In this document: piece after piece, positions 1-29,200 of the stretch
Position numbering within the stretch: the first letter of the stretch is position 1
Layout of the letters: each line of letters opens with the position of its first letter
Assembly (NCBI GenBank): GCA_002633005.1
Contig: NMRA01000189.1
Location: 635,169 to 677,505, forward strand
Direction: 5' to 3'
DNA: 42,337 nt
DNA from: Phoronis australis
Lineage: Eukaryota; Animalia; Phoronida
The notes under the pieces: generated by a model
Seen by the model: the letters and a program-made list of their open reading frames with translations, nothing else
Told to the model about the DNA's origin: nothing
Database searches by the model: none
Program-made: the position numbers and the translations under genes

Positions 1-1
1 A

Positions 2-583
2 AAGGTATTTTGGCGGTTTTACTAATGACCATGTGAGCTGGCCACTGAGACTATTACAGTGTGGGCAACTAAAGTCCTCGATGTCCAACGACGTCCACAA
101 GCTGTGCCACAACTCCTGCACAGTTATTTCTTTCCTTAGCGTTGGGAGGTAGACGGTCAACTCCCAGTCTATCTGTGTTTTTTCCTTTGTTGTTGAGCAG
201 TTATTACAACTCCTAGTTTGCTTCTTTACGTGTTGGAAGGTACTAGTAACCTCAGACGTTACATTATCAGCGTTGTGAGCAAGTGTGTCTACGTACCATT
301 GGTTCAGTAACCATAGTAAAAATTCATGGGCATCCTGTTGACTTCCATTGCCAAGAGAGTTGTTCTGTAATCTTAATTTATTCAAAATTTCAGACAGAGT
401 TGATGTATACCTTTTAGTTGCTTCATATGTGTTCACAAAGATGGTTTTCATATAGTTTTTCTTGTTGATATTGTATTTGTGCCAGTTGAGGTTGCATGAA
501 AAGATAGCTTGTAGTGTAGAGTTCACAAAACACGTGTTTCCAACATTGCAAAGACCAAATCTTTTATCTTTTGTTGATTTTTT
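2..583 (-). CDS. USP (peptidase C19) deubiquitinase-like domain, open to the window edge; C-terminal extension of the retrotransposon ORF
   Basis: Manual translation with no stop: KKSTKDKRFGLCNVGNTCFVNSTLQAIFSCNLNWH...LGNGSQQDAHEFLLWLLNQW...TFQHVKKQTRSCNNC...EDFSCPHCNSLSGQLTWSLVKPPKYL. It shows a Cys box (Cys codon 530-532), a QQDAHEF box (320-340) and two CxxC motifs (197-208, 56-67). The His box would lie outside the window. No Met precedes the Cys box in this frame. Confidence 0.9.
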
Positions 584-1058
584 TGTTTGTCTTCCTTGAT
601 ATCGGGGATGACGAAGTAGCTAATTGTATAAGGTTCTCTGTTGAGTCATGATTGAGAATAGTTTCAACTCCTCTTTGCGTTTCAATCACGGGCTTAGAAA
701 TGTTGCAGAGTTGCCATTCCGTAAATTGCTTGTTGTTTCTTGATAAATATATCGTATAGCTACATCTGAGAGCTGTCTGAGAGGCCGTTTGGTATGTTTG
801 TTTTTTGATTTCTTTGGGGACCTCGAGGAAATTCATTAGCTTCTTTAATGATTTGTAGATGAAGCCTCTACTGCCAACTTCAACAGGGAACAGGACTGTT
901 TGCCATCCTGCGTTTTTACATTCTTCGACAAGATTTGTATATTTCATTCTTTTCCTCAGGTGTGCCGATTCCATATTGTCTTCTGCTGGTATTGTAAGTT
1001 CTATTAAAACTGCTCTTTTTGCCTGAATTGACCATAACACAATGTCAGGTCTTAATTC
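564..1058 (-). mobile_element. 5'-truncated RLE-type non-LTR retrotransposon (Hero-like), endonuclease domain
   Basis: Translation ELRPDIVLWS...AVLIELTIPAEDNMESAHLRKRMKYTNLVEECKNAGWQTVLFPVEVGSRGF matches the PD-(D/E) RLE pattern (RPD...IELT.P.E...RK..KY..L...GW...PVEVG.RG) I recognise from Hero-clade elements. The RT domain is absent. Confidence 0.85.
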
Positions 1059-1745
1059 ATATGAAATGACTGATCTAATCCATATGATTAAAATGACTGA
1101 TCTGATTCATATGAATCAACTGATCTGATCCATATGAAATGACTGATCTGATACAGATGAAATACCTGATCTGATCCATATGAAATGACAGATCTGACTC
1201 ATATGAAATGAATGATGTGATCCATATGAAATGACAGATCTGACTCACATGAAATGACTAATCTGATCCATATTAAATGACAGATCTGATCCACATGAAA
1301 TGACAGACATGATTCATATGAAATGACTGATGTGATCCATATGAAATCACAGATCTGATCCATATGAAAGGACAAGTGTGATCGATATGAAATGAGTGAT
1401 CTGATCCACATGAAACGACAGATCTGATTCATATGAAATACCTGATCTGATCCATATGAAATGACAGACGTGATTCATATGAAATGACTGATGTGATCCA
1501 TATGAAATCACAGATCTGATCCATATGAAAGGACAAGTGTGATCGATATGAAATGAGTGATCTGATCCATATGAAACGACAGATCTGATTCATATGAAAT
1601 GACAGATCTGATCCCGATGAAATAAAATGAAATGACAGATCCGATCCATGTGAAATGACAGATCTGACCAATATGAAATGACTGATTCATATGATATGAT
1701 TGACCTGATTCATATGAAGTAACAGATCCGATTCCTATGAATCTA
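1057..1745. repeat. 23-bp minisatellite (consensus ATCCATATGAAATGACAGATCTG), about 30 copies
   Basis: Direct tandem repeat; diagnostic variants recur at a 161-bp period (blocks starting at ~1295 and ~1456). Confidence 0.95.
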
Positions 1746-2026: not shown

Positions 2027-2238
2027 GGATTTCGAAAAATATTGCCTTTCTAAATTCTGTGATAGCATTTTGAAAATATAGGATGATAGGGCTGTCCATG
2101 GACGTTTTGAAGGTATAGTCTTTAACTGCCTGGGTACTCGCGACAATCTCTGCGACTTCTCTGTACTGATAAACAAGATGTTGATTGGACGAAGGGATAT
2201 TGGTCTGAATGGCAATCATTTCCTTGACTCGTGATAAC
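2027..2238 (-). CDS. TBK1: TBK1/IKKe-like kinase coding exon 9 (ubiquitin-like domain)
   Basis: AG/GT-bounded, 212 nt, phase 2 to 1; LSRVKEMIAIQTNIPSSNQHLVY...KTSMDSPII resembles the TBK1 ULD (QTKIISSNQELIY...KTTEENPIF). Confidence 0.85.
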
Positions 2239-3490
2239 CTGTAGTGACAACACTGACAGTGACAAAGACATGTTACAGGGAAATTGTACCAATTTCTGAT
2301 CAAAATAATTGTTAAAATAACCCTTTTTCATTTTTTAAGGTCTTTTAACACCATAACTTGAGAATGAGTACCCTCTGACACAGTGCCACCAGTACTGAAG
2401 AATGGCCCTGTGGAAATATGATGAATGACACATGGAATTCCGAGTGTGAACATCAATACACATGCTTGGCCGGAAGGTTACCCATCACATCGGCATCACT
2501 TACACGTGGCCTTTATGCACTGTACTTGTTTGGGCTTAAGCCAATAACCATGCTTCCCTTGTTTTTACTTCGATCACTGTCCGTTTTAATAAATTGCAAC
2601 TATGCAAATCAAAGGTGGTCGCCATCCTACGTAAAAGTAAACTGAAAGGGGTTTCCCAGATTTCAACCACTGGGAATGCCTGAATGATATGATGTCAGTT
2701 TCATTACTCTAATTCATGAGAAGCCTTCATGTTGACCGATATTCTACAGTGCTACCCTTCGGAGCACTGTGAATGTGTTCAGAGAATTGGCACACTTTTT
2801 CAAAACAGTCAACATGTGATGGTAACAAGTGGTAGAAAGCTTGAACATGGGAAGGCATTCATTCAGTGCTACTTATAGTTCATGGAAGAAAAGGGAAAAT
2901 ATTTTATTTGTTGGCCATATTTTTCCAAACTGTTGTCGGAGCTTTAGAATTCAAGAATTAAAACAATCGCTAATTATGACCAACAAAAGTGTTGCTGATT
3001 TTTGAAGACATAGACACGTGTATATTGGTCAAATTACAGCTATTCCTATTGGATGCCACTATTTGCTTAGAAATAAATTCACAGAATCTAACAAGCTCAT
3101 CCAACATATGAAACTTTTAACTTAGGTTTGTCAAGTAACTACATAAAACTAGTCTCTAAGTGGTCCTCACTGACATTTGGTGGTTTCAGGGCTAAGAAAA
3201 CACTGCCAGCCCGATGGCTACAGGCCAAGCACAACAAGTTAGCAGGTCACAGCGGAGTATTCCACGCACCAAGACTCTAGGAACAACAATGTGCTACAGA
3301 TGAAAAATAAAATAATTTCTTTGATGAAGGGAGCTATAAAGCACCTTTAATTACCAGTAAGTGGACAAAAACATCTCTCCAAACAATTTTACATCATGTA
3401 TCTGTGCTGTAGTTGAAGACCTCAGCACATACAATTAGATCAAAAAAATCGGTGGATATCCTGTTGCAAATTTCAACATTTCTCACTCAC

Positions 3491-3669
3491 GTGTCTTCCG
3501 GGTTGGCGTAGATTCTCAGTGAAGCACATGCACCCGTGTGGAACACATGCAAAATTAATTTGCTTGTAACTGACTTGACTTCTTGGAAGAAGTGCTCGTA
3601 TGACCACTTGCGTTGAGGATTGACCTCCAGTAGTCCTGCTATGACAGGTGTGATAAGATTACGTAGTCC
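3491..3669 (-). CDS. TBK1: TBK1/IKKe-like kinase coding exon 8 (end of kinase domain, start of ULD)
   Basis: 179 nt; GLRNLITPVIAGLLEVNPQRKWSYEHFFQEV...LHVFH...LRIYANPED; flanked by tttgtag and gtgagt. Confidence 0.9.
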
Positions 3670-3941
3670 CTACAAAGATACAGACAAGTGTACAATGTGG
3701 TTGCGATTCATAACCAACTCAGTTAATAACTTTCCAAAAATATTTGATTAATTTTCGTCAGTTTATAGATATGTATGGTGTAACTGGTCGGCTTTACACA
3801 GACAATAATTTTCACAGATTTTGAACTCGGCACAAATGAACAAAAACAAACAAAACCTGTATGACTTGGTATGCAATTAATTTTCAGCAGCGCACCCCAA
3901 GGCAAGCTAGCTCTGATGAAGAACTGCACTAGTCTATTTAC

Positions 3942-4211
3942 CTGAGAAAACAAGCAGGTGGAAGGGAGATCCCTACTCCACACTATAGGCCCCCCTTCTT
4001 TCTCTTGCACCCCAGAGATCACTCCTGGATCCTTCTTGTTGTGTATTTCAAACATTGTGTCCTTGTTTTTGCGTCCCCCGAAGGGGCGGAATGGCAGCTG
4101 GCCAACGGCAATGTGGTACAGGGTGACACCTAGCGACCAAAGATCAACTGATGCGTCAAATACACGGCCGTGACCTTGACCCATGACAGCACGCTCGTAG
4201 ACAGTGGGATC
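3942..4211 (-). CDS. TBK1: TBK1/IKKe-like kinase coding exon 7
   Basis: 270 nt; DPTVYERAVM...ASVDLWSLGVTLYHIAVGQLPFRPFGGRKNKDTM...GVISGVQEKEGGPIVWSRDLPSTCLFSQ, a segment diagnostic of TBK1/IKKe. Confidence 0.93.
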
Positions 4212-4825
4212 CTGGATGACAAAATTTTTTCAGACCTGAATTTTACTTTATAATATTTTATAATATTCATAATGACAAATCCAACGTGTCATGTCCAAAA
4301 AATAAAAACTGTGACAAGCTAATTTATTGTGCCTGTTATCAAGAAATAACTAACTGTTAGCTTGTTCCAAGTCCACGAATACACTCCAATCTGAGCAAAG
4401 AGAAATCTGAGGCCAGTTTTGTAATGAGAAGTGGCCCAAAACAAAAGATATTTTGACAAAAGATGGTTTTGAGCAGCACAGAGACACAACATCGCTTTTT
4501 AATGCCACAGTAACACATGAGCAACACTGGTACTATCAATGACAGATAACTATATGTCAAAAATACCATATCACTATTATCAGCGGTACAACTATTATCT
4601 GACTGAACTAGTGTTAGTTTTATCAGTGAAAACTTGCTCTCACAGGGATGCTACTCGCATACTTGTTATAATGAACGCTACATCAGCAAGCCAAAAATTG
4701 TTCTAAGTTCTAAGTACAACATAAAGTATGAAGCAATTTTATTATTTATTATTATATTTTATTACACCTACACAACACCTACAAGCTGCATTGCCATCAG
4801 AGTGTAAGCAAGGAAAACAAAGTTA

Positions 4826-13859: not shown

Positions 13860-14370
13860 GGTTACATAGAGATGGCTACGTTACGTCCTCGTCTCGAGGA
13901 CTTCATCAGGCCACTGAGTTGTCACGCGACTCTACATGTGATCTGTCACAGTTTTAATCACGTACAGTTTGTGTATCAAAGGGTGATTGGAGTCAAACGG
14001 AAGATAGTGCACAAACTGGGTGTGGGGAAGCATACATTGGGGAAACCAAACAAGCCCTGAAAAGTCATATCAACCAACATCGTAGGCCCAGTTATGGGGA
14101 CTGCTATGACTCTGCAGTTTTTAGTCATATAGCTTCCACAGACCACTCTTTCGCCATGGAAGATGTCAAGATCCTAGATAGAGAGGAAAATTGGTTTAGG
14201 AGAGGGGTCAAAGAAGCTATTCACGAGAGAATTGAGAATCCTAGCCTCAACAGACAGGGGGGGCTGAGGTTTATCTTACCTAGGACGTGGAATAGGGCGC
14301 TGAAGATCCCGCGAAAACTGTGCGACAGATCACATGATGTGTCACGTGACAACTCAGTGGCCTGATGAAT
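13860..14370 (+). mobile_element. Penelope-like element 3' fragment (GIY-YIG end) with inverted pseudo-LTR
   Basis: AYIGETKQALKSHINQHRR...DVKILDREENWFRRGVKEAIHERIENPSLNRQGG; ~13902-13955 is the inverted copy of ~14313-14369. Confidence 0.85.
13873..13913 (-). ncRNA. Minimal type I hammerhead ribozyme relic in the Penelope pLTR
   Basis: Minus strand TGGC-CTGATGA-A-GTCCTCG-AGA-CGAGGAC-GTAAC-GTA-GCCA: stem I, CUGAUGA core, perfect 7-bp stem II and GUA cleavage triplet. The GAAA box reads GTAA. Confidence 0.75.
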
Positions 14371-16724: not shown

Positions 16725-17544
16725 CTGTCAAGACCATATGAACAGCACAGCGCCTACAATTATATTCACAATGGAAGAAGAGACAAATAACAGTCTCCCA
16801 TTCCTAGACGTACTAGTGACTCGTGTGGAAGGACAGTTAACGTCAGTCTACTAAAAGAAGACCCACACAGGACGATACCTCGACTTCAACTCCAACCACA
16901 CCACAGGAGTCAAGAAGGGTATATCAAATGCCTTGCATCAAGATCATAAGAAATCTGCGGTGATACAGCACTCCAAGCAGAAATGACCAACCTGACAGAG
17001 ACTTTCGAAGGAAATGGCTACCCAAGGGATTTCATCAAGTCGGCTTTATCGTCGCAGAGAAAAGAGAAAGTGGCAGAAGAACGCCAACTACAGACTATGT
17101 GCTTACCGCATATACCCGGAATAACCGAGAGGCTGGGACGCATATGTAAAGAATTTAAAATACGAACAGTATACTGCAGCTTAGACACACTGGGTCGGCG
17201 ACTGACAAAAGTCAGACCAAGAACTGACATAGGGAAAAAGAAAAATGTCATCTATGAAATGTGGTGAATCATATATCGGTGAAACATTAAGACCACTGGA
17301 GACGAGAATTGTTGAACATAAGAGGTGTTATAGAGAGGGTAATACCTCATCAGGGGTAGCAGAACATATGCGGTCGAAACGACACAATATCCAATGGAAT
17401 AAAATCCGAATACTTGACAGTGAAACAGGCTGGACCAAGAGAAAGACCAAGGAAGCCACGTACATGAAAGTACAAGGCAATGTCTTCAGTCAGCCAAGCA
17501 AACAACCAAGTGACACCTGGCTCAGTCTACTTAGGAAGGTTTAA
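16725..17544 (+). mobile_element. Degraded Penelope-like retroelement (RT C-terminus plus GIY-YIG endonuclease)
   Basis: IIFTMEEETNNSLPFLDVLV...*KKTHTGRYLDFNSNH; NGYPRDFI; LPHIPGITE; NVIYE...CGESYIGETLRPLETRIVEH; contains a stop and frameshifts. Confidence 0.9.
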
Positions 17545-21736: not shown

Positions 21737-22472
21737 CAGGCAACCCCCGGGTGATAATTTTACATGTTTGACACACTTTTGAGCATGTCAAACGTGTAAA
21801 AAAGGTGTAATACGTGTCAAAATTGCCACGTTAACGTGTAAAACGTGTAAAAACATGACACGCTAGCATGTCAAACGTGTAAAATTTGCCACGTTTACGT
21901 GTCAAACATGTAAAATTTGCCACGTTAGGGTGTCAAACGTGTAAAAATTTGACACGCTAGTGTGTGGAACATGTAAAATATGATAGAACTTACCAATAAA
22001 GATACAATTTAAATAGGCTTGGCAGTTCTGAAAAGGCCACTAGGAGGTAATCACCCAATTTGAATGACTAAACATGTTCCCTTAATAACATCAAAGAATT
22101 TTCAACAAAAGTTTTCACTGCCTATTCAAATATCCAAATACTGAGTTAGAGTTGGTTTAGCTGTCAGAGAGTGCAGTTGTGTCAGGAGAGCACTTATGAA
22201 GTATGGTTTTCGAGTGTGGTGCAGCTCTAACAGAAGTTTGGTATGTATATACTCTGGTTGACAGTGGCTTGATAAAGTTTTCTTGCAAATGATACTTCTT
22301 TTAACAGGTAAGTTTGAGCGTGTCAAACATGGAGTATTGGAACGAAAATTACACGTTTTTGACACGTCTGACACGCTATATTTTACACGTTTGACACGTC
22401 ACGTTTTACACGTTCGACACGCTTTTAGGGCGTTCCAATACTCCACGTTTTTAGAGCGTGTTAGGTGCCCTG
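21737..22472. mobile_element. Foldback-like element with inverted arrays of ACGTGT(A/C)AAA
   Basis: The left array (21760-21980) reads AAACGTGTAAAA/GTGTCAAA; the right array (22320-22460) reads TTTTACACGTTT/TTTGACACG. Confidence 0.6.
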
Positions 22473-27878: not shown

Positions 27879-29200
27879 TTATTACTCTGCACGTGTAAGC
27901 GCAGACTCCGCAGAGTACTGTTGTTCCTGGGTTTTCTTCAATTTTATTCTAATTCTTATTCTTATTACACTGCGCGTACAAGCGCAGAGTACTGTTGTTC
28001 CTGGGTTTTCTTCAATTTTATTCTTATTCTTATTCTTATTCTTATTACACTGCGCGTACAAGCGCAGAGTACTGTTGTTCCTGGGTTTTCTTCAATTTTA
28101 TTACTCTGCGCGTGTAAGCGCAGAGTACTGTTGTTCCTGGGTTTTCTTCAATCTTATTCTTCTTCTCATTCTTATTCTTCTTCCGACCAACTTTGAGGCT
28201 TAATAACTCTAAATTGGGTGTAGGTACGGTCTTTAAATTCAGCATATGACTTTTGACAGTATATAAATTTTGACTGGTTATATAATCATATTCCATATTG
28301 CACCGGAAGAGGTCGTTTGGTGCAAAGGTCATATAATTATATAATTTTCAAAATACTACTGCTCCTTCAGTTTTAAAGCTATCTTTTTCAAATTCGGTGC
28401 AAAGGTATATGTCAACATGACAATTAGTGCAAACATGGGGTCATTAGGTCCATTTTTCTTCTGAAAATTTGACCTTTTCAATCAGCAAATATTCTGATGT
28501 GTCAACCGTTAGACAACTGTGATTCTCAGCATTAAACACATTTTCCATGGACTTTGCAATAATTCTCCTAAAGATGATTAAAATGCACCGGATAAGGTCA
28601 ATTAGTGCAAAGGTCATGTAACGTTCAAAATGTTATATCTCTTACGTTTTTCAAGGAATTCTTTTCAATTTCAGCACACTGGTGTAAGTCAACATGCCAA
28701 GTGAATACTCTACTTTACTTTGCAATAGGCCTAACCAATCAGAAAAATAGGTCAAAGGTCATTGAGTGCAAACTAAAATTTTGAGCTAGCGACTTCAGAA
28801 TTACGTATCTGTTTACTAAGTGCGATTGAGTTTGAATTCTAAATTTTCAGGTCATTTGGTGCACCCATGGGGTCATTAGGTGCATTTTTCTTCTGAAAGT
28901 TTGACCACTTCATTCAGCTTGTATTCTGAAGTCCTTAAAGTAAAACATCTGTGATTATTACCATTAACCACACTTTTAATCGAGTTAGCAATTACTCCCT
29001 TATCGGGGCTCATAATGCACCGGAAGAGGTCAATTAGTGGAAAAGTCATCAAAAAATTAATATGTAATTTCTCCTACAATTTTAAAAAATTCCTTTTCAT
29101 ATTGGTAAACGGGTTGTTGTCAGTAACTTCCCATAATAATTCCAGTAATATGCACGCGCAGAGTCCGTTATTGTCACGCCGTGACAATAATCTTTCTAGT
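27879..29200 (+). mobile_element. Helentron-associated (HINE/DINE-1-like) element, copy 1, with a tandemly repeated 5' end
   Basis: 5' subTIR and hairpin ACTCTGCGCGTGTAAGCGCAGAGT, (TTCTTA)n microsatellite, internal repeated core, 3' subTIR CACGCGCAGAGT, hairpin TTATTGTCAC-GCC-GTGACAATAA, ending in CTAGT. Confidence 0.75.

Follow-up and report, generated by a model that had tools for sequence, protein, structure and literature searches.

A lineage of RLE-type non-LTR retrotransposons carries a USP/C19 deubiquitinase (DUB) domain behind its RLE endonuclease, which is normally the last domain of such LINE proteins. As far as the sequences tell, this fusion is lineage-wide, and three types of cargo can be assigned to the same C-terminal slot: USP, an AMSH-type JAMM enzyme and a DarT-like ADP-ribosyltransferase. 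The analysis started from one copy in Phoronis australis (contig NMRA01000189.1 of GCA_002633005.1, positions 635,169-677,505 of the forward strand; this whole stretch of 42,337 nt is the window). That copy is dead, being both 5'-truncated and frameshifted. A sequence-only reading had proposed that a retrotransposon lineage had captured such a DUB C-terminal to its RLE. Sister copies that read through from RLE into USP, and full-length relatives that include the His box, now bear this out.

The window copy belongs to a multi-copy family, occupies positions 1-1056 of the minus strand and crosses the left window edge. The catalytic part of its restriction-like endonuclease (RLE; 708-1056), which is of the PD-(D/E)xK type, contains the motifs RPD (1052-1038), ELT..E (1001-981), K..KY (953-939), EVG.RG (EVGSRG, 881-864) and ALRCSY..YLSR (ALRCSYTIYLSR, 773-738), the first three of which are invariant across the RLE alignment A1. 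A linker of about 50 codons (557-707), whose length differs between copies, leads into the first 60% of the USP domain (2-556). This part includes the Cys box (556-527) with the predicted catalytic Cys codon at 532-530, QQDAHEFL (340-317), two CxxC pairs (208-197 and 67-56) and PPKYL (16-2), while the His box lies past the left window edge. All these motifs sit on the minus strand, at the places and in the order of the earlier description. RLE and USP do not share a frame in this copy, a point that goes unmentioned there. A TAA (564-566) closes the RLE frame (564-1106, minus strand). The USP frame (2-619, minus strand, open at the window edge) is one base off, shifted by a surplus base in a run of seven T (578-584, plus strand).

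The assignment of the domain is supported by profile and structure searches. Pfam UCH (PF00443), a profile of 254 positions, matches the USP frame at E 1.6e-17 (64 bits, cut-off 23.9) with its positions 1-148, and the 11 PDB sequences found at E<=0.001 are USPs without exception, the top ones being weak matches to USP46/USP12 (E 2e-10). The predicted structure of the half-domain is weak (pLDDT 59.8), and its listed Foldseek matches are USPs only. Because the copy is 5'-truncated, neither an RT nor a zinc knuckle (CCHC) was found in the window by tblastn with seven relatives, whose matches are confined to 44-1091. No second copy of the first 1,060 bases was found elsewhere in the window.

Sister copies were compared across eight sequencing runs from three studies, as contigs in X1-X5 and as RNA reads in X6-X8. 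One T of the 578-584 run is missing from sister copies in all eight. Contig depth without the extra T amounts to 49.3 of 49.3 in X2, 74.9 of 79.1 in X3, 58.9 of 62.3 in X4, 25 of 25 in X5 and, in X1 (79.9 in all), 31.7 for a gap at 578 and 48.1 for one at 583; the corresponding RNA reads number 29 of 32 (X6), 28 of 34 (X7) and 11 of 11 (X8). Since sister copies lack the extra T, the frame break belongs to the window copy or its assembly; the base may have arisen by mutation in this copy or through an error of assembly. The frame of the family runs uninterrupted from RLE through the linker into USP. At some sites the window stands almost alone against the other copies; of the seven such sites in USP, tallied from 40 of 233 variant rows, five alter an amino acid, which fits a window copy in decay. 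Length also varies: copies differ by 3-nt indels at 632 and 751, and 51 nt of the linker (627 to 679) are missing, with the frame kept, from some DNA contigs and RNA reads. Splicing is not supported as the origin of this gap, which has AT..GC ends and occurs in DNA.

The copies are dispersed, 5'-truncated and 3'-enriched, the pattern by which an RLE-type non-LTR retrotransposon is recognized. Contig depth is 60-129 over USP and 27-53 over RLE (X2, X4), while the single-copy level, taken from contigs that match window 3011-3455 without a difference, is about 3.5-3.9; such depth is not a copy number and is read only as repeated, with the 3' end commoner. Loose ends on the 5' side of other copies lie at 195, 290, 809, 874, 892 and 1005, with different flanks, and the family probably has no fixed target. 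Longer copies run past 1056 with other sequence (loose end in X2, X3 and X4) and, read by eye, keep the RLE frame and the usual pre-RPD peptide, so the window copy is cut at 1056. One observation counts against the original proposal: X3 and X4 contigs depart from the window sequence at 599-601, just ahead of USP (depth 27 in X4), and end before any rejoining is seen. They may come from copies whose linker is longer, or from a subfamily that has a different 3' end and no USP.

The element is also seen in RNA. A first mate on the plus strand marks minus-strand RNA, because the reads over the TBK1-like exons described below, the strand control, show it; X6, which has no strand control of its own, borrows that of the same study. 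By this mark 5%, 11% and 15% of the element RNA depth is sense and 85-95% antisense, the latter probably from copies within host transcripts. RNA reads with fixed loose ends at window 857, 894-896 and 1005 were observed as well and point to a few diverged truncated copies, antisense inside host transcripts.

At its truncation point the window copy adjoins a 23-bp minisatellite in the flank outside the element (1058-1741, no strand assigned; by TRF, period 23 with 24.4 copies at 1058-1623 and period 69 up to 1741). Targeting of minisatellites by the element was considered and is not supported, the 5' flanks of other copies being mutually different. Minisatellites in the window lie at 1058-1875, 21804-21983 and 27909-28183, with periods of 23, 53, 31/63 and 56/80. 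On the element's strand, the minus strand, follow exons of a host TBK1-like (TBK1/IKK-epsilon-like) kinase gene at 2042-4229 (~3941-4229, 3489-3668 and 2042-2236; PDB TBK1 E 1.3e-27, Pfam TBK1_ULD E 6.8e-6). They are joined by spliced RNA with CT..AC ends, and the outer exon edges are approximate. The element probably sits inside a later intron of this gene, the remaining exons of which would fall past the window edge. A high-copy repeat (2350-2790, contig depth 100-380) lies within a TBK1 intron. Further away, two plus-strand stretches (13958-14365 and 16950-17544) look by eye like remnants of Penelope-type GIY-YIG endonucleases; their frames gave no Pfam match at E 0.01.

The complete architecture is found in relatives. 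Searches with the RLE gave 2,880 relatives at E<=0.001 and, among full-length proteins, P0002, a protein of 1,523 aa with RT, knuckle, RLE, linker and an entire USP with His box, whose RLE is 44% identical to that of the window. In relatives with 44-52% RLE identity, RT and CCHC knuckle stand ahead of the RLE in one ORF, and in cargo-bearing relatives the linker spans 65-160 aa. When longer proteins were searched by words for the window USP, one host USP36/42-like protein was all that came up, and no relatives of the window USP or of P0002 were found in viral contigs.

Three sets of relatives, which partly overlap (L001 is the same as P0128), give an impression of how widely cargo is spread. 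The best 120 of 242 full-length relatives comprise 13 with USP (one partial), three with JAMM (one partial), three with a DarT-like domain and 101 without cargo. Nine of the best 150 of 2,880 RLE relatives have a USP, and these are nine of the 11 in this set that extend at least 150 aa past the RLE (cargo was checked in 30 picked rows and also in all 150). The best 80 of 257 metagenome loci hold 14 USPs, each starting in the RLE frame, eight DarT-like domains downstream and one JAMM elsewhere on the contig; many of these loci stop too soon after the RLE to reveal cargo. The shares are not population frequencies, because the query alignment is enriched in carriers and many loci end early. A shared tail after the stop was not seen in related loci. 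As 101 of the best 120 full-length relatives do without cargo, the DUB is dispensable for the clade.

Besides USP, two other enzymes occupy the slot. STAMBP/AMSH-like JAMM domains stand C-terminally in P0011, P0012 and P0013, which are closely related to the window element; they match STAMBP with E 4e-55 and have an intact metal motif in three of four cases. In L002 the JAMM lies at 196-720, upstream of the RT ORF, perhaps as part of a tandem or circularly assembled repeat. With a DUB of an unrelated class in the same position, it seems to be the removal of ubiquitin itself that is selected. In a separate clade, DarT-like domains (PF14487, E down to 1e-25) follow directly past the RLE, both in proteins (P0053, P0104, P0113 and P0203/P0278) and in metagenome loci (L019, L022, L030, L034, L038, L070, L073 and L076), and the motifs YHFT, VRLS and QAE occur in all seven domains checked. 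P0278 combines RT, RLE, DarT and USP, the last two in tandem, in a single ORF of 1,738 aa. The DarT-like cargo implies that the slot is not about ubiquitin alone. Behind some DarT-like domains lie Cys-rich or low-complexity tails without a Pfam match (L019:3100-3627, L038:2450-3016 and the C-terminus of P0104).

Can the history of this cargo be traced? The RLE of the window falls into a clade with mixed USP, JAMM and cargo-free members (15 rows, support 98, P0033 left out), and a second tree recovers the same mixed clade (17 rows, support 98, P0037 not included). USP carriers appear at no fewer than five places of the RLE tree, and an AU test that set 32 carriers as one clade apart from the 41 remaining rows rejected their monophyly (p 2e-46, one short row omitted), a result compatible with repeated gain as well as with repeated loss. 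Inside clades the USP tree mirrors the RLE tree, and inheritance has therefore long been vertical. The deep branches of the USP tree are unresolved, the window row sits on a long branch, and P0001 is the only host/Helitron USP sequence in the comparison set. With one clade close to USP8 and the others matched only weakly by cellular USPs, at least two USP captures and one JAMM capture are suggested; the history may alternatively consist of a single old capture together with losses and uneven rates of change.

The USP itself shows the marks of a maintained enzyme. Among 27 near-complete domains, whose pairwise identity ranges from 18 to 80% (median 25%), the catalytic Cys, the His and the oxyanion Asn are present in all. 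The third catalytic residue is Asn in 15, Asp in nine, Ser in two and Tyr in one, and is followed by Asp in every case. For the window family, the catalytic triad is taken over from relatives that are 25-27% identical. The complete domain of L001 is modelled with the thumb-palm-fingers fold of a USP (pLDDT 79.7, pTM 0.80, TM 0.79 to USP21). The cargo domains have their fold and catalytic residues in common with cellular USP8, USP2, USP15 and USP21 and with STAMBP/AMSH, and differ from them in that the elements carry the bare catalytic domain alone (245-333 aa), intronless in the loci read. On these grounds the domain is very probably an active deubiquitinase.

Selection on the domain is found to be purifying in relatives. 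Across the 10 pairs that five related loci form, pN values are 0.18-0.24 for USP, 0.18-0.26 for RLE and 0.38-0.61 for the linker. Silent sites are saturated (pS 0.70-0.89 in USP and RLE alike), so the USP is under constraint equal to that on the RLE. Two of the five loci have a stop further upstream, and stops are present in L044 and L051. dS is saturated in nine of the 10 USP pairs; the sole computable dN/dS is 0.13, and the close pair L061/L068 gives 0.29 from few changes. The window USP is at most 27% identical to any USP domain in the comparison set and matches solved structures only weakly, which argues against a fresh retrocopy. Affinity to cellular enzymes varies among clades: one matches USP8 with 227 bits (E 2e-66), and the others reach about 42-106 bits to solved USPs (USP8/2/15/21/36/46).

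Among described elements, one close counterpart is the HERO clade. Membership of the element in Hero is likely, on indirect signs. The window RLE shares 41-48% identity with unlabelled RLE proteins from fish and a bivalve; the fish-named RLE rows are cargo-free and make up a clade of their own. Among solved RTs, R2 is the best match for most relatives tested and L1 for P0018. According to the available sections of three accounts (PMC4640811, PMC9004415, PMC10294476), Hero is reported from fish and bivalve groups, and HEROTn and HERO-1_BF have, like the relatives described here, a single ORF with RT, CCHC knuckle and C-terminal RLE; these sections make no mention of a protease in Hero. A fixed target is mostly absent from the clade and some families sit in microsatellites (PMC4640811, available part); here the copies have many different 5' flanks and the window copy abuts a minisatellite. 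Unlike the described HERO elements, the present lineage adds a linker of the length given above and a USP, JAMM or DarT-like domain after the RLE.

Captured proteases are known from other transposons, as far as the accessible portions of the literature go. NeSL and Utopia-1_TSP are RLE LINEs that have likewise captured a protease acting on a ubiquitin-like modifier (PMC4640811), there an N-terminal Ulp1 of the C48 SUMO-protease type and here a C-terminal USP/C19 or JAMM. Some ORF2p (Dualen/RandI and others) share with our element a DUB fused in a non-LTR retrotransposon ORF (PMC13405545) and differ in DUB class (Josephin or OTU), in its N-terminal position and in clade. Helitron-like HLE2 elements of subgroups c and d have a UCH domain (PMC11417382), a Trichomonas transposase (XP_001314237.1) has Peptidase C19, and Ginger1 has a C-terminal slot that holds either OTU or Ulp1 and in this resembles the exchangeable slot here (both PMC2836005). 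These three also bear a USP-family or other DUB, but are DNA transposons, whereas the window element is a retrotransposon. The initial list of transposon proteases (Ulp1/SENP and OTU) was therefore incomplete, USP having been published for HLE2 and the Trichomonas transposase. In the literature searched, which further included parts of PMC7650587, PMC7599744, PMC13580325 and PMC13708176 and had repeat databases outside its scope, there was no description of an RLE LINE that ends in a USP, JAMM or DarT domain. What appears to be new is thus the C-terminal USP on an RLE LINE, DUB-bearing transposons as such being already known; the chance that the layout is already recorded in repeat databases, subscription papers or a 2025 inventory is about one in three.

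What might the domain do? USP and ubiquitin form a textbook pair. Our preferred reading, to which we give an even chance, is that at the level of the family the tethered USP likely takes off the ubiquitin which the host attaches to the protein or particle of the element itself. The family ORF would be translated as RLE, linker and USP with the domain kept tethered; a ubiquitin-like GG site is missing from 11 of 12 linkers, and the USP presumably stays attached to the element protein. The tethered enzyme would then strip ubiquitin from the protein or particle, which might evade destruction long enough to integrate. The choice of substrate is itself an evenly balanced call. USP8 and AMSH are both endosomal enzymes, which hints at an endolysosomal or autophagic route. 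A precedent is human LINE-1 ORF2p, which is ubiquitinated by TRIM41 and then degraded, as stated in the available part of a review (PMC11868049). This precedent is mammalian and from a different LINE clade, which weakens the analogy, and the mostly antisense element RNA, the predominance of cargo-free relatives and the DarT-like cargo in the same slot also count against protection in cis.

A broader reading concerns the slot as a whole. One wide branch of the Hero-like LINEs may possess an exchangeable C-terminal slot for counter-defence, filled repeatedly and independently by USP, AMSH-type JAMM or a bacterial-type DNA ADP-ribosyltransferase, sometimes in tandem; we regard this as tentative, at somewhat less than an even chance.

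The active DUB could instead work in trans at the insertion site, on histone H2A/H2B or DNA-repair factors, and so ease integration or resist silencing. Fusion beside the endonuclease would place it at nicked DNA, DarT-like domains belong to a DNA-modifying family, and the best fold match and several sequence matches are to USP21/USP2, with USP21 on an H2AK119ub nucleosome among the PDB matches. The best-resolved donors, however, are USP8 and STAMBP/AMSH, the endosomal enzymes, and USP21 matches at about 22% identity assign no substrate. We consider this action on chromatin unlikely, while noting that Bao et al. proposed that Ulp1/OTU domains of transposons take part in DNA repair (PMC2836005, available part).

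Viral DUBs damp ubiquitin-dependent host signalling, and the element's DUB might likewise damp those pathways of innate immunity or RNA sensing that signal through K63 or linear ubiquitin chains. The preference of AMSH-type JAMM enzymes for K63 chains would suit such a role, and compact USPs of large DNA viruses form the next-nearest Atlas clusters (0.83, a lead only). LINE proteins, on the other hand, are scarce and work in cis, so that a substrate close by fits better, and the TBK1-like neighbour is one insertion site among many flanks and no evidence. A signalling role is accordingly rather improbable.

It is very improbable that the USP is neutral cargo, be it from a one-off retrocopy, from template switching onto a host USP mRNA, or from two domains placed side by side by accident in the assembly. 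RLE and USP are out of frame in the window and most relatives lack the USP, but the frame is intact in the sister copies, which are repeated, proteins of 18-80% identity share the layout, constraint on the USP equals that on the RLE, both trees match inside clades, and chimeric relatives are implausible given their number and different sources. Equally improbable is a programmed ribosomal frameshift, or a self-processing USP, that yields separate RLE and USP products: the shift site is an A-rich run on the coding strand, yet sister copies lack the extra base in 8/8 runs, relatives have RLE and USP in a single frame, and 11/12 linkers lack the GG dipeptide.

The suggestion that ubiquitin pathways limit transposition is an old one. 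A selected, catalytically intact DUB behind the RLE, found in many lineages, together with a second DUB class, makes it testable. RLE proteins are in current use for gene insertion; the fusion shows that they tolerate large C-terminal domains, and it suggests that a tethered DUB might prolong the lifetime of an RLE protein in cells. The lineage is also a source of minimal, divergent USP domains of 245-333 aa, and it carries a warning for annotation, as some 'expanded USP genes' of invertebrates may be LINE fragments. If the reading of an exchangeable counter-defence slot is true, ubiquitin-dependent disposal of retrotransposon particles would be an old and general host defence that LINEs counter enzymatically.
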